DNA from: a virus
Lineage: Duplodnaviria > Caudoviricetes
Virus record (IMG/VR): IMGVR_UViG_3300045580_000297
Coordinates: 1-25,406 of that record
Reading direction: 5' to 3' (one strand)
Length of the DNA stretch: 25,406 nucleotides
The notes under the pieces are model-generated. The model saw nothing but the letters and a program-made list of their open reading frames with translations, was not told the DNA's origin and searched no databases. A program made the position numbers and the translations under genes. Positions 3,010-21,684 of this stretch are shown here, piece after piece (position 1 is the first letter of the stretch; each line of letters begins with the position of its first letter).

Positions 3010-3061
3010 GATCTCATCAGCACTGGCCTCACCAGTGGACCGCCTCACGGCGGTTTCGATC
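3010..3061 (-). ncRNA. Type II hammerhead ribozyme HH1
   Basis: Minus strand: GAUC-GAAA-C-CGCC-GUGA-GGCG-GUC^-CACUGG-UGAGG-CCAGUG-CUGAUGA-GAUC. Complete core and all three stems paired. Predicted cut between 3038 and 3037. Confidence 0.95.
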
Positions 3062-3065
3062 TGCA

Positions 3066-3464
3066 TCACTTGATCCGCATCACCTCGACGTAGTTGCCGC
3101 TGGTGGCGCTGGTCATGAAGGACCCCGGCCCCCAGTATCGCGTGCACCATGCCGTGATGCCGCCTGAGAGGTTGTCCTTCTTGAACTTGTCGAGGGGCAC
3201 CTGAGCCACCTCCCCGGGCTTCAGGCCCTCGATGAGGGGCACGAAGTAGGCCATCTGCTCACCCTTCTTGAAGATGGGCCCGCTGCGCTTTTTCTCAGGA
3301 GCGGCTGCGAGGTATTCTGTGAAGGTCTGCTGCTTCTGCACCTCAGGCCTGTTCGAGTGAATGCGGCCATCTGGGGCCACGATCTCGAACTCGCAGCCCA
3401 TGTTGTGGAGGATGGTCGTGCAACGTTCCATCCAGTCGAGTTGAAGCTTCGATACGGTCTTCAT
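3066..3464 (-). CDS. Hypothetical phage protein (132 aa)
   Basis: GAGG RBS, phage-like codon usage, stop 4 nt before HH1. Confidence 0.8.
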   Translation of the reverse strand: MKTVSKLQLDWMERCTTILHNMGCEFEIVAPDGRIHSNRPEVQKQQTFTEYLAAAPEKKRSGPIFKKGEQMAYFVPLIEGLKPGEVAQVPLDKFKKDNLSGGITAWCTRYWGPGSFMTSATSGNYVEVMRIK

Positions 3465-3471
3465 GTGGTCC

Positions 3472-3660
3472 TCACTTCGGGTTGTCGATGTCGAGTTGAG
3501 CCTGACGCTTCAGCACCTCAGCGCATGCCCTAACACTCAGGCACGCCTCGAAGGCCTCGTTCGCCTTGCCTTCCTTGAAGGCTGCTTCGACGGTGTCGGT
3601 GAACTCCCTCATCATGGCGATGATGTTCGAGGCCTTCACCTTGCTATCAATAGACGCCAT
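3472..3660 (-). CDS. Small hypothetical protein (62 aa, MASIDSKVK...)
   Basis: Strong AGGAGG RBS upstream of the ATG at 3660; overlaps the end of the upstream gene. Confidence 0.75.
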   Translation of the reverse strand: MASIDSKVKASNIIAMMREFTDTVEAAFKEGKANEAFEACLSVRACAEVLKRQAQLDIDNPK

Positions 3661-3940
3661 GTGCGCCCTCCTGTTCGATGTGGTCGATCTTTGCAGTCTC
3701 GCGTTCAGCGAAGCTGATCCAGTAGTCGATGCGGTCCTCCTCAGCGAGGAAGATGCCAAGCTGGCGCTGAGCACGCTTCAGGATGCGGCCCCACACCATC
3801 AGTGAGTTCAGGTTGGCGCGGGTCCGAAGCTCCCGGTCATCCTTGTCGATGATCTCATGGTAGGCATTGTAGGCCACCGCGAGGTCACGGATGTCATCCG
3901 TCATGACGGTGACTTCCTTGTTCACTGGCATTTCGATCAT
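3647..3940 (-). CDS. Hypothetical protein (97 aa)
   Basis: AAGGAG RBS directly after HH2; phage-like codon usage. Confidence 0.8.
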   Translation of the reverse strand: MIEMPVNKEVTVMTDDIRDLAVAYNAYHEIIDKDDRELRTRANLNSLMVWGRILKRAQRQLGIFLAEEDRIDYWISFAERETAKIDHIEQEGAHGVY

Positions 3941-3957
3941 GCTGATCTCCTTGGGTT

Positions 3958-4009
3958 GATCTCATCAGTGCCAGCCTTACTGGCAGACCCCTTTGCAGGG
4001 GTTTCGATC
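3958..4009 (-). ncRNA. Type II hammerhead ribozyme HH2
   Basis: Minus strand: GAUC-GAAA-C-CCCU-GCAA-AGGG-GUC^-UGCCAG-UAAGG-CUGGCA-CUGAUGA-GAUC. Predicted cut between 3986 and 3985. Confidence 0.95.
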
Positions 4010-4257
4010 TAGAAGGGGATTTCAGGGTCGAAGTGGATGTTGGCCTTGGGCCTCACCTGTTGGGCGTAGACCTGTTTGCCGTTATCGTCGATCACCTCGA
4101 AGTCGATGTCGTAGAAGCCTTCGCTGGCTGCCATCATGCTGGCCAGCTTCAGTGCGTAGGCGGCAGTCATGATGCCGTCCCGTTCGAGGCGGCATATTGA
4201 GCGGGGGTCGCAGGGGCTGGTGCCTTCATAAGGCATGCGGGAAATGATGCGGTACAT
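4009..4257 (-). CDS. Small hypothetical protein (82 aa, MYRIISR...FDPEIPF)
   Basis: The RBS GAGGAG is supplied by the HH3 core. The TAG stop overlaps the first base of HH2. Confidence 0.75.
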   Translation of the reverse strand: MYRIISRMPYEGTSPCDPRSICRLERDGIMTAAYALKLASMMAASEGFYDIDFEVIDDNGKQVYAQQVRPKANIHFDPEIPF

Positions 4258-4260
4258 GTT

Positions 4261-4312
4261 GATCTCCTCAGTGCGGGCTTGACCCGCAGACCCTCTCACG
4301 AGGGTTTCGATC
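4261..4312 (-). ncRNA. Type II hammerhead ribozyme HH3
   Basis: Minus strand: GAUC-GAAA-C-CCUC-GUGA-GAGG-GUC^-UGCGGG-UCAAG-CCCGCA-CUGAGGA-GAUC. Predicted cut between 4289 and 4288. Confidence 0.93.
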
Positions 4313-4324
4313 TGTCCGTCCTTC
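4312..4324. repeat. 13-bp inverted repeat, right arm (CTGTCCGTCCTTC)
   Basis: Reverse complement of 2111-2123. Confidence 0.75.
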
Positions 4325-4340: not shown

Positions 4341-4358
4341 GCACCTTTCGGTCCTCCT

Positions 4359-6479: not shown

Positions 6480-7921
6480 TGACCTTCGAGACCATATGGC
6501 AGCCTCAGCCCGGGCCACAGACGGCCCTCCTCACATGCCCCATCAACGAAGTCTGCTATGGAGGCGCACGAGGGGGAGGGAAGACAGACGGTGTTCTGGG
6601 TGAGTGGGCCAGCCATGCTGCTGAATACGGCCAGAACGCCATAGGCCTGATGGTACGCCGCCAGCGCACGGAACTCATCGAGACCATGGAGCGCAGCAAG
6701 GTGCTCTACAGGCCACTGGGGGCCACCTTCAACGAAAGCAGCAAGATGTGGCTCTTCCCAAATGGAGCCCGTCTGCGCTTCGCCTACCTCGAACGCGACA
6801 GTGATGCGAACGGGTATCAGGGCCACTCATACACAAGGGTCTACATCGAGGAGGCCGGGAACTTCCCGGTCCCCACGCCCATCTTCAAGCTCATGGGCAC
6901 CCTTCGATCAGGTGCTGGCGTGCCATGCCGCATGATCCTCACATGCAACCCCGGTGGGCCCGGGCACCAGTGGGTGAAGGCACGCTACATCGACCCCGCA
7001 CCCATGGGGTACAAGCCCATCGAGGACACCTTCGTGAACCCTTGGACGCACGAGAAAGTCGTCCGTTCACGGATATTCATCCCGAGCTTCGTCACCGACA
7101 ATAAGTTCCTTGGCACCGACTACGTGGCCATCCTGCAACAGGTGGGCAACGACAACCTCGTGAAGGCATGGCTCCTTGGCGACTGGAACATCGTGGAAGG
7201 GGCCTTCTTCGACCGCTGGACGCATCACAACATCGTGCGGCCCTTCGAGATACCGCAGGACTGGCTGCGCTTCAGGGCTGCTGACTGGGGCTTCAGTGCG
7301 CCCTTCTCGATGGGCTGGTATGCCGTTGCTGGCGATGACGCTGGCGACTACGGGCTCCAGAAAGGATGCCTCGTGCGGTATCGGGAGTTGTACACGGTCA
7401 AACCGGGGCAACCGAATGTTGGACTTCGTCTGACTACGGAAGAATTAGCTGAGCGCATCAAGGAGATGAGCCGTGGGGAAAAATACGCATATTCCGTCAT
7501 CGACCCTGCCGCCTTTGCCGAGTCTGGGGGGCCATCTATCGCTGAGCGTTTTGCTCGTGCTGGCGTGGAGTTCAAGCGCGGTGACAATAGGCGCTTGGGC
7601 GCTCGCGGCGCAATGGGTGGCTGGGACATGGTTCGTGCACGGATCATCGGGCAAGATGACAAACCAATGTTTGTCACGTTTTCGACCTGTACGGAATTGA
7701 TCCGTACACTGCCTGTTCTTCAGCATGACCCAGATAGGCCGGAAGACCTTGACACCTCACAAGAAGATCACGCCGCCGACGAGCTTCGGTATGCCGTGAT
7801 GTCCCGCCCGTGGGTGCCAAACAAGGACAGAAGCAAGGAGCCGGGGAGGACCATTCATCAAATGACATTAAATGAAGCTTGGTCTATGCTCCGCGAGCCT
7901 GTCAGGGAGGGAAGAATATGA
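6479..7921 (+). CDS. terL: Terminase large subunit
   Basis: Walker A YGGARGGGKT, Walker B VYIEEA, TCNPGGPGHQWVK, nuclease motifs AADWGFSAPFS and EDHAADELRYA. Confidence 0.97.
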   Translation: MTFETIWQPQPGPQTALLTCPINEVCYGGARGGGKTDGVLGEWASHAAEYGQNAIGLMVRRQRTELIETMERSKVLYRPLGATFNESSKMWLFPNGARLRFAYLERDSDANGYQGHSYTRVYIEEAGNFPVPTPIFKLMGTLRSGAGVPCRMILTCNPGGPGHQWVKARYIDPAPMGYKPIEDTFVNPWTHEKVVRSRIFIPSFVTDNKFLGTDYVAILQQVGNDNLVKAWLLGDWNIVEGAFFDRWTHHNIVRPFEIPQDWLRFRAADWGFSAPFSMGWYAVAGDDAGDYGLQKGCLVRYRELYTVKPGQPNVGLRLTTEELAERIKEMSRGEKYAYSVIDPAAFAESGGPSIAERFARAGVEFKRGDNRRLGARGAMGGWDMVRARIIGQDDKPMFVTFSTCTELIRTLPVLQHDPDRPEDLDTSQEDHAADELRYAVMSRPWVPNKDRSKEPGRTIHQMTLNEAWSMLREPVREGRI

Positions 7922-8352
7922 AACGCTTCGAGGATAAGGTGCTCAAGGGCGAGGGGTGCTGGCGGTGGAGCGCAGCAAAGCTCCCCACTGGCTATGGCAT
8001 TTTCAGGCTCAACGGGCGGAACCATTACGCTCATCGCCTCGCGTATGAGCTTTGGGTTGGCGAGATCAGCAAGGGCATGTTCGTGTGCCACAGGTGTGAC
8101 AACCCGTCATGCGTTCGCCCTGACCACCTCTTCCTTGGCACGAACAGGGACAACATAGCTGACAGGACAGCGAAGGGGCGCAGCCATAGGCCAATAGGGG
8201 AGAGAAACCCGAAGGCAAAGCTTAGTAGTGAAGACGTTGCAGCAATACGAAGTGACACAGGGCGTTCGAGTGACATAGCCAAGAAGTATGGCATCGCTCC
8301 AGACACAGTGCGTCACATCAGAAACCGCAGGATATGGAGACATCTGCAATGA
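7918..8352 (+). CDS. HNH homing endonuclease (HNH_3-type with C-terminal HTH)
   Basis: CWRW...YAHRLAYEL...VCHRCDNPSCVRPDHLFLGTNRDNIAD...AKLSSEDVAAIR; ATGA overlaps at both ends. Confidence 0.95.
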   Translation: MKRFEDKVLKGEGCWRWSAAKLPTGYGIFRLNGRNHYAHRLAYELWVGEISKGMFVCHRCDNPSCVRPDHLFLGTNRDNIADRTAKGRSHRPIGERNPKAKLSSEDVAAIRSDTGRSSDIAKKYGIAPDTVRHIRNRRIWRHLQ

Positions 8353-9692
8353 CTTCGAGCTTCATAAACACCTTCGCGTCCCCGGGTGACAGCGACTACC
8401 TCGCATCGAACGAGATCAGCGAGGACGGCAGGACGAAGCACCTCCAGCGCATCATCATCGAGGGCCACAGCCCCAACAGCACACAGCTTGATGCCTTCGG
8501 GCGTCTTCGTGTGTCGAACCCTCAGGTCCTTGGCTTCAGCAGCTTCGAGTATGCCCTGAACACGCTGACCATGGAGACGGCAGTGAATGGCTCAGGTGCG
8601 GTGGCCAGTCTGCCGAACGAAAGCTCGATCTCCCTCACCAACGGTGGCGGCACGAGCGGGCACTATGCCTATGCCCAGACCCGTGTGCACCATCGGTACG
8701 TGCCCGGGCGCAGCCAGCTTGTGCGCTTCACGGGCTCCTTCGGCACGCCAACTGCGAACGTGCGCCAGAGGGCAGGGTACTTCAACGACAGGAACGGCCT
8801 GTTCCTTGAGTACGATGGCACGACCCTCTACTTCGTGCGCCGCACCTACACGAGCGGTGCTGCCGTGGACACACGCATCGCAAGGTCTGCATGGTCTGAC
8901 CCCCTCGATGGCACTGGCGTGTCAGGCATCAACCTCGACCTCACCAAGACATGGTTGTGCTGGATCGACATGGAATGGCTTGGTGTGGGTCGGTATCGCT
9001 TCGGCTTCGCAAGCCCCACCACTGGCGAGCTTGTCACGTGCTACGCTGCTGCTGGCACGAACGTGCTCTCAGTGCCCTACATGACAACGGCATCCCTGCC
9101 CGTGCGCTTCGAGATACAGAACACTGGCGCAGCATCGAGCCTGACCATGAAGTGGATATGCTATGCCGTGGACACCGAGGGCGGTGATGAGGGTGATCTC
9201 CCCATCCAGAACGCCATCGACAGCGGCACCACTGCCACGGCCCTAGCCAGCGGCTCATACAGGCCCATCCTTGCCATCAGGGCCGACACTGTCGTGAGCG
9301 GCGGATCAGTGCCGAACAGGGGCCAGATCATCGTGAAGGGCATCAGCGTTGCGAACGTGGGGAACACGCCCATCAACGTTCAGGTGCGCCTCAATCCCAC
9401 GACACTGACGGCTGCTGGTGGCGCTGTGACATGGGCGAACACAGGTGCCATCAGTGAGAGCGCGGCCTTCACCAATGCTGCTGACACCATCGCTGGCGGA
9501 ACTCTGATCGAAAGCTTCTTCGTCAACGCCACGGCCACAGCAAAGGGCTCAGGCTCTCAGGACTTCTTCATGAAGCTGCCGCTGGTCTACACACAGCTTG
9601 GCAGCATTCAGGACGTTCTCGCCATCTCAGCCGCTGGCCTTGGCGGAACATCGTCAGCACACGCATCAATTACATGGTCGGAGGTCTACTGA
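8349..9692 (+). CDS. Beta-rich, probably virion-associated protein (DAFGRLRVS family)
   Basis: 447 aa, rich in Gly/Thr/Ser/Ala; DAFGRLRVSNP, YVPGRSQL and IDMEWLGVGRYRFGF motifs recur in viral structural hypotheticals. Confidence 0.6.
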   Translation: MTSSFINTFASPGDSDYLASNEISEDGRTKHLQRIIIEGHSPNSTQLDAFGRLRVSNPQVLGFSSFEYALNTLTMETAVNGSGAVASLPNESSISLTNGGGTSGHYAYAQTRVHHRYVPGRSQLVRFTGSFGTPTANVRQRAGYFNDRNGLFLEYDGTTLYFVRRTYTSGAAVDTRIARSAWSDPLDGTGVSGINLDLTKTWLCWIDMEWLGVGRYRFGFASPTTGELVTCYAAAGTNVLSVPYMTTASLPVRFEIQNTGAASSLTMKWICYAVDTEGGDEGDLPIQNAIDSGTTATALASGSYRPILAIRADTVVSGGSVPNRGQIIVKGISVANVGNTPINVQVRLNPTTLTAAGGAVTWANTGAISESAAFTNAADTIAGGTLIESFFVNATATAKGSGSQDFFMKLPLVYTQLGSIQDVLAISAAGLGGTSSAHASITWSEVY

Positions 9693-12457
9693 TGGCACGC
9701 ATCAAGCAGGGGCGCATCTCAGGCCTCCCATCCGTTCCCGTCATCACGCCCGGGCCGACACAGGCAGACATCGACCTCGTTCGAGAGAAAGAGGCCATGG
9801 CCAATGCTGCTCAACGCTACAACGAAATGCAGCGTGAACTCACCACCTACGGGCGAACCCTCGACGATCCACAGGGAAGCTCGTGGACGGGCAACACGGC
9901 TCAGGGCATGGGTCCTATCGCCAGCGCACGCAAGGCCACTGGTGACCTTCCTGAGGGCCCGCAAATGGGCTCCGGGGACCGCAAGAAGGCTGGCAAGTCA
10001 GGGTGGGACAAGAAGCGCGAGAAAGTGGCTGCTGCCATAGACAACAAGTTGCAGGGTGCTGGCAAGGCGGTGGACAAGGTCATCGGCCCGCACGCATCTC
10101 AGGGACTGGGCCGCATCGCTCAGGCTGGCGACATCGCAAAGTACGCCATCCCTGTGGTGGGCGACATGATCGACATCTCCGAGACCGCTCAGGGCCTCGT
10201 GAACAATGCGATGGAGGGTGACTGGCTTGGCATGGCTGGATGGGGTGCCGCTGGTGCTGCTAGCCTCCTGCCAGCCATGTTCATCGGTCCTGCGGCAAAG
10301 AACTTCCCGGTCAAGAACGCTGACGATGCGTATGATCTGCTGAAGCAGGGCGTTGATCCTGAAACCATCCGTGCACGGACGGGTATCATCTTCGACGCAT
10401 CAGGCATCCCGCGCTTCGAGATAGATGACAGCAAGGCACGCCTCACGCCGAAGGGCGAGCGTTTTGCGAAGGGTGCTGCCATCGACAAGCGTTCCCCTCC
10501 CATGCCATTCGATCAGGCCTTCGATCACCCTGAGCTTTTCGAGAACTATCCCCAGATGCGGAACTACATGACCCGCTTCGCTGAGGATGGCGGGCCCGCT
10601 GGTGCGTTCTATCCAGCATGGGGAGGTCAGGGCCCTGAGGTCGAGGCATACGGCTCCTTCGATCAGCCAGCCTTCGGGTACAAGGCACCGAAGAACCTTC
10701 AGCAAGTCATCATGCACGAGGGCCAGCATGCCGTGGACAACATCGAAGATGCTGCCTTCGGCTCGATGCCCGGGACCGTACCGAAGGAGATCAGGGACAA
10801 GTACCCGAACCTGAGCGAGTTCCAGCTTTACAAGCGAGCCGCTGGCGAGACGCTGGCAGACACGACAGCCATGCGTGCGAACCTCGATGCTGACCAGCGC
10901 GGTGCCATCTCTCCCTACCATGGCGTGGGCAGCCAGTACGATGCTCCGTACCAAGAGCAATTCCCACGCTCAGAGCAGTGGGTGGAGCGCAATGATCCCC
11001 GCTTCGCTCCCGAAGAGGGCTACAGCATCATGCACACGGCATACGACCCCTACACGCCTGAGCCCGTCACGCGCATCCTCGCGAACCAGAATGGCGAGGC
11101 ATATGGTGGTGCGTACACGGAGCGTCCTGTCATGGGCTCAGTGCCTGAGGCAGCCCCGAAGAAGAAGAGGATGGGCCCCATCGCCCTTGGCGCTCACCCC
11201 ACGACAGACCCGAACTACATCGCAGCCACGACACTCGCGAACGGTGGCTACAGCGTGAACGTGCCCACGGGCCAGAACCCCACTGATGGCTACATGATGG
11301 GCATGTACGCGAACACGGACCCTCGCAACATGGTTGTCACTGGCAACATGACGCCTGACGATGCCCGTGCCTTCTACGGCACCAACAAGAAGGTGCTTCA
11401 GGGCGAGGACAAGTATTTCGGCACATGGCATAACCCTGACGATGGCAAGACATACCTCGATGTCTCGCGGCGCTTCGGGCCCGACGAAAAGAGGGCTGCC
11501 ACGAAATTCGGTGAGCGCACTGGCCAGCTTGCTGGCTTCGACGTTGCTGCCATGGACAGCTTCCCTGTCGGGAACTGGGAGCAGTTCATAAACTCACCTG
11601 AGTTCATGACACGCATGAACGAGATGGCTGATGAGGGCGGAAAGTTCCTTGGCCAGTACCCCACGAGGCAGTGGTGGAACATGATGGGCACGGACATCGA
11701 GAAGACCTATGGCCCCGTGAACACGCCCTACATGGCTGGCTACACGGCAGCCACGGCACCGAACGCTCAGCCTCGCGAGAACCTCCAGACAGCATCTGAG
11801 TACATGCGCCGCCACATCAAGGGCGAGCCCGTGATCCAGCCTGAGTGGCGTGTGGGCGATGCTGGTGGTCCCCCCATGTCGCGCAAGCCGGGGACGAAGA
11901 TCGGCATGGAAGGCACACGTGTGGACAACCTCGAACGAGCCCGCTCAGGTGGACCATTGGGTGGTCCAAAAGTCGAGAGCGAGCGCAGGGCCATGCTTGG
12001 TGACCCTGATGCCGTTGTCCTTGACCGCTGGCACGCACGCCTTGCTGAGGACCCGAACAGGGGCATCCTCACGGAAGCTCAGGAGGGCACGGTCTCTCGC
12101 GAGAATTACCCGAAGCTCGAAGACAGGTTCAGGCAAGCTGCGGCAGCACGTGGCATGACGCCTCGCGACTTCTCCGCTGATGTGTGGACTGGCGTGCGCG
12201 AGAAGGTCAGGGGCGGTGGCGACCTGTACGGCACGAAGTACAAGCCCTCAGCAGTACGTGGCGAAAGCAAGGCCTACGCTGATGTGTGGACGGACCTCGT
12301 GAAGGAGAAGGCAGCCTTCCTGAAGATCACGCCTCAGGAGATGATGGCCCGCCTCAAATCAGGCGATGCCAACCTTCTCAGCGTCCTGCCCTTCATCCCG
12401 GGTGGCGCTGCCCTTCTCAGGGAGTTCTACGGGCCTCAGGAGCCTGAAGAGCAATGA
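9692..12457 (+). CDS. Large polyvalent protein: LPD23-like domain, HExxH zincin-like peptidase, further domains including an HhH-glycosylase-like C-terminal domain
   Basis: ETIRARTG...RFEIDDSKA...DHPELFENYP (LPD23-like); VIMHEGQHAVD (10715-10729) and YKRAAGE; C-terminal ATAPNAQPRENL...GPKV...VVLDRWHAR...TPRDFSADVW. Coupled by TGATG. Confidence 0.7.
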   Translation: MARIKQGRISGLPSVPVITPGPTQADIDLVREKEAMANAAQRYNEMQRELTTYGRTLDDPQGSSWTGNTAQGMGPIASARKATGDLPEGPQMGSGDRKKAGKSGWDKKREKVAAAIDNKLQGAGKAVDKVIGPHASQGLGRIAQAGDIAKYAIPVVGDMIDISETAQGLVNNAMEGDWLGMAGWGAAGAASLLPAMFIGPAAKNFPVKNADDAYDLLKQGVDPETIRARTGIIFDASGIPRFEIDDSKARLTPKGERFAKGAAIDKRSPPMPFDQAFDHPELFENYPQMRNYMTRFAEDGGPAGAFYPAWGGQGPEVEAYGSFDQPAFGYKAPKNLQQVIMHEGQHAVDNIEDAAFGSMPGTVPKEIRDKYPNLSEFQLYKRAAGETLADTTAMRANLDADQRGAISPYHGVGSQYDAPYQEQFPRSEQWVERNDPRFAPEEGYSIMHTAYDPYTPEPVTRILANQNGEAYGGAYTERPVMGSVPEAAPKKKRMGPIALGAHPTTDPNYIAATTLANGGYSVNVPTGQNPTDGYMMGMYANTDPRNMVVTGNMTPDDARAFYGTNKKVLQGEDKYFGTWHNPDDGKTYLDVSRRFGPDEKRAATKFGERTGQLAGFDVAAMDSFPVGNWEQFINSPEFMTRMNEMADEGGKFLGQYPTRQWWNMMGTDIEKTYGPVNTPYMAGYTAATAPNAQPRENLQTASEYMRRHIKGEPVIQPEWRVGDAGGPPMSRKPGTKIGMEGTRVDNLERARSGGPLGGPKVESERRAMLGDPDAVVLDRWHARLAEDPNRGILTEAQEGTVSRENYPKLEDRFRQAAAARGMTPRDFSADVWTGVREKVRGGGDLYGTKYKPSAVRGESKAYADVWTDLVKEKAAFLKITPQEMMARLKSGDANLLSVLPFIPGGAALLREFYGPQEPEEQ

Positions 12458-20286: not shown

Positions 20287-21684
20287 ATGACACGCCCTAC
20301 ATCGACCCTCTACCAGATGGACTACCAGAACCCTCACGCACAGAACGCCCTCAGGGTTCCCGTCCTCGTTCTCTGCAATACATCAGACGAAAAGCTTCGC
20401 GAGAACATCGCAAAGAACTCAGCACGCCCGGGCAAGTGGGTGTGCGCTCAGCCGCCCTTCGACAAGACGGCCATCCTCGTGGGTGGCGGGCCATCTGTAG
20501 CATACGACATCGAGACCATCAGGGAGATGTCGAAGACGGCCACCATCTTCGCCATGAATGCGGCAGCCACCTTCCTCATCAAGCACGGCATCGTCGTGGA
20601 CTATCAGGTCATCGCTGACGCGAAGCCAGAGACCGTGACGCTGGTCGAGCACGGAGCGATGAACCACCTCTTCGCATCACAGGTCGATCCCATGTGCTTC
20701 ACCATGGAGCCCGGGGCCGTCCTGTGGCACCTCCACATGGAAGGCATGGAGGATGTCTTCCCTCCCGAGCGCGTGAAGGCCGGGGGCTATTCCATCGTGG
20801 GCGGCGGCGCTTCAGTGGGCAACTCAGCATGCGCCCTCGCGTATGTGCTTGGGTACAGGAAGCTGCACCTCTTCGGGTACGACAGCAGCCACAGGGGCGA
20901 TGCCTCTCACGCATATGACCAGCCCATGAACCGCTTCATCCCTGTCATCGACGTTGAGTGGGCGGGGAAGCATTTCAGGTCATCCGTGGCCATGAAGGCT
21001 CAGGCCGAAAAGTTCATGATCACCGGACAGGCCCTGAAGCACTTGGGCTGCGAGATCACCGTGCATGGTGACGGCCTTCTCCCGACCATGTGGAACACGC
21101 CCATCGAGAACGCCACGGAGAAGGACAAGTACAGGCTCATGTGGCAGTGCGATGCCTACCGCGAGCATTCCCCGGGCGAGTACCTCGTGCAGACCTTCAT
21201 CGAGCTTGTGAAGCCTGATGACCTGATCATCGACTTCGGCTGCGGCACTGGCAGGGCTGCGAAGGCCCTGTACGACAAGGGGCACAGGGTCTTCCTGATC
21301 GACTTCGCTGACAACTGCCGCGATGAGGAGGCCATGGACCTCCCCTTCCTCGAATGGGACCTGACCCGCCCCATCCCGGCGAGGGCCCCATATGGTCTGT
21401 GCACGGACGTTATGGAACACATACCGCCTGATGATGTAGAGAAGGTTGTCTCGAACATCATGGAGGCTTCTGAGACGGTCATGTTCCAGATCAGCACGGT
21501 GAAGGATGCCTTCGGTGCCGTTCTGGGTACTGACCTACACCTGACGGTCAAGGACCATGAATGGTGGGGCTCTCTGTTCGAGCGCCTTGGATACGTGATT
21601 AAACAGCAGCAAAAGGGCGATGTGAACTCACTGTTCATCATCACCCGAAAAGGAGATGAAAATGGCAGCATTCGACCCGAGTGA
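20287..21684 (+). CDS. Fusion: DUF115/Maf (MptE-like) domain plus class I SAM-dependent methyltransferase
   Basis: N-terminal AILVGGGPS...IFAMNAA...VIADA...GGASVG...LGYRKLHLFGYDSS; C-terminal IIDFGCGTGRA...CTDVMEHIP...HLTV. Confidence 0.8.
   Translation: MTRPTSTLYQMDYQNPHAQNALRVPVLVLCNTSDEKLRENIAKNSARPGKWVCAQPPFDKTAILVGGGPSVAYDIETIREMSKTATIFAMNAAATFLIKHGIVVDYQVIADAKPETVTLVEHGAMNHLFASQVDPMCFTMEPGAVLWHLHMEGMEDVFPPERVKAGGYSIVGGGASVGNSACALAYVLGYRKLHLFGYDSSHRGDASHAYDQPMNRFIPVIDVEWAGKHFRSSVAMKAQAEKFMITGQALKHLGCEITVHGDGLLPTMWNTPIENATEKDKYRLMWQCDAYREHSPGEYLVQTFIELVKPDDLIIDFGCGTGRAAKALYDKGHRVFLIDFADNCRDEEAMDLPFLEWDLTRPIPARAPYGLCTDVMEHIPPDDVEKVVSNIMEASETVMFQISTVKDAFGAVLGTDLHLTVKDHEWWGSLFERLGYVIKQQQKGDVNSLFIITRKGDENGSIRPE

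Follow-up and report, generated by a model that had tools for sequence, protein, structure and literature searches.

The locus analysed here raises the question of what becomes of a phage transcript that contains several hammerhead ribozymes: is it cut into linear messages, or are the pieces closed into circles or joined anew? Reviews still regard the function of such ribozymes in phages and bacteria as an open question (PMC6765202, PMC6155905). Clustered hammerheads flanking single prophage genes or short gene blocks were described by Perreault et al. in 2011 (PMC3088659), with a triple arrangement around ardA of Agrobacterium tumefaciens shown in their Fig. 3. Cleavage was demonstrated for three arrays in vitro and for one in E. 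coli; spliced or circular products were also proposed, and neither was detected (data not shown). According to a preliminary description of the present locus, no account of circles of coding phage mRNA was known, a view that has to be withdrawn because the same products were proposed for tandem prophage hammerheads in that study. The circle hypothesis is not new, and one weakly documented negative result exists.

Ribozymes and genes of the locus

The window, i.e., the whole 25.4-kb stretch of DNA that was analysed, is a phage contig and carries terminase, portal, major head and tail genes on its plus strand (Pfam/PHROG). Three further plus-strand ORFs were recorded: an HNH endonuclease gene immediately after the large terminase gene (7918-8352), a 921-aa ORF that carries LPD23 and DUF7178 domains and is flanked by a virion gene and the portal gene (9692-12457), and a 465-aa ORF with MptE-like and methyltransferase domains inside the structural gene block (20287-21684). 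The small gene unit of interest lies on the minus strand, as do all features described below. It extends from about 4350 down to a predicted intrinsic terminator at 2102-2057, a long hairpin followed by eight U (-30.5 kcal/mol, z -4.6) that was missed by a consensus terminator scan with a loop limit of 8 nt.

Exactly three type II hammerheads were found in the window when both strands were searched with a structural descriptor. Hammerhead 1 is located at 4261-4313 (predicted cut 4289/4288), hammerhead 2 at 3958-4010 (3986/3985) and hammerhead 3 at 3010-3062 (3038/3037). Every copy has the complete core (CUGANGA, GAAA and the GUC triplet), a 4-bp stem II of sequence GAUC/GAUC, a stem III of 6 bp and a stem I, also of 6 bp, with a U after it; loops close both stem I and stem III, and stem II is open. 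The minimum-energy structure of each 62-nt stretch is the hammerhead (z -2.2 to -2.8). Thirteen copies from other phages, with the window copies left out, were used to build a covariance model, which gave scores of 67.1, 68.8 and 65.1 bits for hammerheads 1 to 3 (E about 1e-16), the next match in the window reaching 12 bits. Covariation among the 13 copies supports the stems, an argument that is partly circular as these copies had been picked by a pairing descriptor. With the Rfam type II model RF02276, hammerheads 3 and 2 scored 36.6 and 35.1 bits compared with a gathering score of 37, and hammerhead 1 was missed. The copies resemble RF02276 in core, triplet, closed stems I and III and open stem II, but belong to a short subclass with a 4-bp stem II that falls just under or outside the Rfam threshold. 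Descriptor, folding and covariance model agree with the three GAUC/GAUC hammerheads described before, and at the level of sequence and predicted structure the motifs are confirmed as type II hammerheads of the short subclass. About 6900 stored viral stretches match the general type II pattern. Two classes can be distinguished among type II motifs, one with a stem I hairpin of 17 nt and a 4-bp stem II, the other with a hairpin of 21-23 nt and a 3-bp stem II.

The seventh base after the cut (U1.7) is U, and stem II is preceded by A, in all three window copies; among 139 short-class copies collected from viral loci without fixing stem II, these bases are present in 131 and 132 copies, respectively. 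Minimal hammerheads contain a U1.7-A Hoogsteen contact (PMC11875169), and the conserved U and A of the window copies would fit such a contact. By inspection, a pseudoknot between loop I and the tail, which is present in most but not all type II motifs (PMC3088659), amounts to only about two pairs in these copies.

The predicted cuts release a 303-nt piece with one ORF and a 948-nt piece with three ORFs, or both together as 1251 nt, as stated in the preliminary description. The 303-nt piece carries an ORF of 82 aa (4009-4257; best Atlas score 0.82, a lead only), and the 948-nt piece carries ORFs of 97 aa (3647-3940), 62 aa (3472-3660) and 132 aa (3066-3464). None of the four has an assigned function or gave a match in Pfam or PHROG. 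The 132-aa ORF resembles unnamed phage protein clusters, and a sequence search with it retrieved only itself; a search for close relatives of the whole cassette found none. All three fragment lengths are divisible by three in the window, a property that was rejected as a general rule since it holds for only 51 of 185 neighbour pairs in other loci. The final gene of the unit (2128-2991) encodes a 287-aa protein with a DUF932 domain (PF06067, E 3e-43; phrog_12094), for which no function was given in the literature matches listed. A ribozyme was found near none of the 11 DUF932 relatives from the viral scan. In a separate locus (L138:1812-3137, minus strand), a DUF932 gene with 36% identity to that of the window lies directly 3' of two type II hammerheads, a layout as in the window; their stem II sequences match each other (GGUC/GACC) and are unlike the window's type.

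Ribozymes and translation signals are closely interlaced. Hammerheads 2 and 3 lie directly 3' of a stop codon, and the UAG stop of the 82-aa ORF (4011-4009) overlaps the first base of stem II in hammerhead 2 and the preceding A. The core of hammerhead 1 doubles as the ribosome-binding site of the next gene (4269-4264), while hammerheads 2 and 3 are followed by AAGGAG at 3952-3947 and 3004-2999 with starts at 3940 and 2991, respectively. A similar placement was seen in 663 short-class copies: an AUG occurred within 40 nt downstream in 609, an SD-like motif downstream in 545 (upstream in 275), and a stop triplet in any frame just upstream in 627 compared with 196 in a control window, the count of 627 being inflated by anchored scans. 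In addition, a GTG at 4344 preceded by the SD-like GAGGAGG provides an in-frame start that reads through hammerhead 1 (4344-4257), and an AUG that overlaps with the stop codon of the 132-aa ORF does the same for hammerhead 3 (3066-2991). From these starts uncut transcripts could yield N-terminally extended proteins; by chance, two in three frames through the motif are expected to be open.

One may ask whether the ribozymes are mainly regulators that destabilize or uncouple messages, with cleavage gated by ribosomes that terminate on the upstream gene, rather than stabilizing insulators. The stop codons at the 5' strand of stem II, the ribosome-binding site in the core of copy 1 and the upstream starts read through copies 1 and 3 would suit such a role, and glmS offers a precedent for linking cleavage to decay (PMC6765202). 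However, both new ends carry hairpins, tandem arrays were cleaved efficiently in vitro without translation (PMC3088659), and read-through is to be expected by chance because two of three frames are open by construction. We therefore regard this role as most improbable.

Taken as a whole, the window shows the arrangement of Perreault et al., i.e., several hammerheads that flank single genes or short blocks in a phage genome. It shares with their arrays the setting in a phage, the presence of three hammerheads on one strand at spacings of about 0.3-1 kb, the small unrelated genes that separate them and predicted fragments of gene length. It differs in gene content (four ORFs without known family, and DUF932) and in lacking a loop I-tail pseudoknot of four or more pairs.

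Stem II of neighbouring ribozymes

The starting point of the circle hypothesis was the observation that stems I and III vary between the three copies while stem II does not. GAUC/GAUC is indeed common to all three, but the shared sequence reaches beyond it: an 11-nt and a 9-nt block, each including one stem II strand, are found in all copies, and copies 2 and 3 have 23 nt in common that extend through the ribosome-binding site. This identity past stem II into the tail favours shared descent combined with gene swapping at the DNA level.

Stem II was compared in two sets of viral loci. The unbiased set consists of 351 loci found without fixing stem II, of which 215 hold a ribozyme (249 unique copies). 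The larger set comprises 899 of 1019 loci, several of the underlying scans being anchored on a stem II type. Matches from a scan of genome contigs were largely due to chance (complete folding in 2 of 120 loci), and none of these 120 loci entered any count. Stem II occurs in 28 types among the 139 unbiased short-class copies. GAUC/GAUC was rejected as a family consensus, being present in 2 of these 139, and over-use of GATC in this phage was likewise rejected (126 sites observed, 151 expected). The probability that three unrelated copies have the same stem II is 0.016; hence the match in the window is beyond chance.

Neighbouring ribozymes in other phages often match as well. In the unbiased set, stem II was identical in 28 of 44 short-class pairs (background 0.10) and in 19 of 31 long-class pairs (background 0.13), with one duplicate and four mixed-class pairs left out of the 80 neighbour pairs. 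The larger, partly stem-II-anchored set gave 109 of 185. Of 55 neighbour pairs with diverged stems I and III, 28 had nevertheless retained an identical stem II, which is more than recent duplication alone explains. On the other hand, 34 of 94 contig groups contain a neighbour pair that is incompatible with circle formation, 22 of 38 arrays of three or more ribozymes have mixed stem II types, and only 10 of the 30 groups with a GAUC copy have all-GAUC neighbours. A match between neighbours is therefore above background yet not required. With respect to the preliminary description, matched neighbours are enriched across phages; incompatible neighbours, which it had named as evidence against circles if seen in homologous loci, were found too, in the part of the groups and larger arrays just given.

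Arrays of eight or nine ribozymes were observed in L308/L309, L898, L779 and L834. Stem II is identical in all eight ribozymes of L309 despite very different stems I and III. In the array of L135, stem II of the third ribozyme (L134) contains a mismatch (GUAC/GUCC), next to five copies with GGAC/GUCC, and this ribozyme may be weakened or inactive.

Could the match be devoid of any role of its own? All copies would then stem from one ancestor, the four-pair helix next to the core would simply change more slowly than the hairpins, and linear processing of the transcript would be the same. At orthologous positions stem II differed in 0 of 17 pairs while stem III differed in 8 and stem I in 5, a comparison biased by stem-II anchoring of the scans. 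For stems I, III and the tail, too, similarity within loci exceeds that between loci (kappa about 0.2-0.45, compared with 0.5-0.6 for stem II), and tails are more similar in pairs with matched stem II (3.5 versus 2.6 of 6). Against mere slow change speak the 28 types among 139 copies, i.e., the free variation of stem II across lineages, and the occurrence of hybrids and of flank switches inside ribozymes (see below). On balance, we consider an explanation by slow change alone possible but unlikely.

Circle geometry and predicted folding

Each internal fragment begins with one strand of stem II near its 5' end and ends with the other near its 3' end. The preliminary description had inferred that the two ends can assemble a hammerhead and be brought together for ligation, by the reverse reaction or by a host RtcB-type ligase. 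On this reading, functional circles or re-joined mRNAs would result, and matched stem II would be selected for this purpose. Retrozymes and viroid-like RNAs offer a parallel in that the unit set free by their same-strand tandem hammerheads bears a 5'-OH and a cyclic phosphate at its ends. Retrozyme circles are, however, non-coding, 600-1000 nt in size, and derived from retroelements that contain type III or type I motifs in tandem (PMC6155905). The units of the window are coding phage genes with ribosome-binding sites, and the copies share only 11-23 nt; the window thus lacks the non-coding unit bounded by long near-identical repeats that is typical of retrozymes. No ligase or reverse transcriptase family was detected among 30 ORF regions scanned in this contig, which represents a partial genome.

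In structure predictions, hybrid junctions with 30-nt flanks fold about as well as native ones, and the ends of each fragment could in principle rebuild a full hammerhead, as had been proposed. End-to-end refolding was predicted at 0.35-4.5%, and native folding in a 300-nt context at 0.15-3.7% (ViennaRNA); the former is not lower, and whole-fragment folding did not separate the hypotheses. In the predicted 303-nt and 948-nt circles the junction ribozyme is buried (P 1.5e-5 and 5e-4, respectively), which could protect a circle once formed. Further, a 12-bp helix is predicted between 4252-4241 (5' arm) and 3086-3075 (3' arm, within the final codons of the 132-aa ORF). With a pair probability of 0.97-0.98 in the 1251-nt fold, it would tie both ends of this piece to each other. 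Only 1.5% of 5677 random 30-mer pairs were as stable (nominal p about 0.015), which becomes p about 0.05-0.09 after allowing for the three to six geometries examined. The 5' arm has its best partner within the transcript in this helix, which does not hold for the 3' arm; the arrangement requires copy 2 to remain uncut, and no such helix was found in other arrays. The helix is a lead that would favour circularization of the 1251-nt piece.

Three predictions that are specific to circles failed. Among non-identical neighbour pairs, those compatible with a circle only (18) exceeded those compatible only with skipping, i.e., with direct joining across a fragment (11), without significance (p=0.26; by group 12 versus 6, p=0.24). 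The flanks of adjacent copies did not pair better in circle geometry (-9.0 versus -8.3 kcal/mol, n=133, p=0.13), and among 206 non-adjacent pairs the top 5% was reached by none in circle and two in skip geometry. Finally, matching of stem II does not fall with the distance between copies.

Functional circles thus draw on the excess of matched neighbours, the local folding of hybrid junctions, the bridging helix, the possible protection by a buried junction and the slight surplus of circle-only pairs; moreover, extended hammerheads ligate faster than minimal ones (PMC6155905). They are opposed by the missing end pairing and distance effect, by the mixed arrays and the minority of all-GAUC groups, and by the negative result of 2011 (PMC3088659). 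In addition, ligation of matched ends would restore a complete ribozyme at the junction and thus expose the circle to renewed cleavage. The stem II strands overlap or adjoin ribosome-binding sites and stop codons, and translation would therefore compete with refolding. Taken together, selection of stem II for circles or re-joined mRNAs appears improbable.

Gene exchange at ribozymes and probable processing of the transcript

Among 790 ribozymes with flanking sequence, 74 pairs from 40 families have the gene on one side in common but not the gene on the other side. These flank switches were seen in phages other than that of the window, in loci chosen for holding ribozymes, and ribozyme-free gene boundaries were also shuffled in one phage family. 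The switch point precedes stem III in 6 families, falls at the cut between stems III and I in 7, and follows stem I in 10; further 9 and 9 were uninformative and 17 unclassified, and one family can count in several classes. A restriction of swaps to the cut, as predicted by RNA ligation, was rejected, with 7 of 23 informative family assignments at this site; compared with a rough length-based expectation of 16%, this is not a significant excess (p=0.06). Non-Watson-Crick pairing in stem II was seen in 22 cases; 3 of them are wobble hybrids, and both parent types are present in their contig group.

Eighteen metagenome loci (L606-L639; e.g., L611:4000-4360, L623:3508-3590 and L627:190-1190) belong to related phage contigs in which small genes occur in many orders and stem III and stem I modules are re-assorted between ribozymes. 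L623/L632 resemble an exact skip junction between the two L611 ribozymes, located in an interval of 7 nt that contains the cut site.

Stem II might also be a lineage-specific compatibility code, with ribozyme-bounded genes re-joined at the cut as RNA to give circular or re-ordered mRNAs (here a 1251-nt circle held by the 12-bp helix) and possibly some of the DNA swaps. We consider this very improbable. Our preferred interpretation, which we hold to be probable, is that the hammerheads cut the transcript into linear mRNAs and that the match of stem II stems from shared descent combined with gene swapping at the DNA level, not from RNA circles.

Starting from the layout and from the swaps observed in other phages, we infer from sequence how cleavage, stabilization of the products and the match of stem II may be connected. 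The motifs at the gene boundaries would cut the transcript during its synthesis, leaving linear pieces of 303 nt, 948 nt and about 980 nt. Since only four base pairs and one U-A contact would hold them, the products would part after the cut. Each downstream piece would start with a 5'-OH hairpin followed by a standard, uniform ribosome-binding site, and the upstream piece would end in a hairpin with a cyclic phosphate. This recalls the insulator RiboJ, whose self-cleavage leaves a uniform 5' hairpin before the ribosome-binding site independently of the upstream sequence (PMC6206723) and raises mRNA about twofold (PMC6206723); by analogy, the phage motifs may act as natural counterparts. RiboJ, however, is engineered, derived from sTRSV and placed after a promoter, while the window copies are natural, recur between genes and, in addition, provide the upstream piece with its 3' end.

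The same architecture may account for the match of stem II. As self-contained hairpins, stems I and III would remain intact when a crossover joins two copies. Stem II extends across the entire motif, and hybrids would therefore work only if their stem II strands are compatible. This need for compatibility, together with slow change of a short helix, would preserve the similarity of stem II among the ribozymes of one phage lineage.

The evidence at hand makes the locus a further instance of a layout that has been known since 2011. In the literature searched, where subscription journals are mostly missing, no paper was found that deals with circles or with a matched stem II in phage type II arrays, and the sections consulted of Perreault et al. 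discuss neither stem II matching between neighbours nor gene swapping at ribozymes (PMC3088659). New with respect to this literature are a stem II that is common within loci yet differs between lineages, and genes that are swapped inside ribozymes. If true, circles or re-ligated messages would amount to protein-free splicing of coding phage mRNA, which would be surprising. The locus of the window offers a compact, testable example of hammerheads in a phage.
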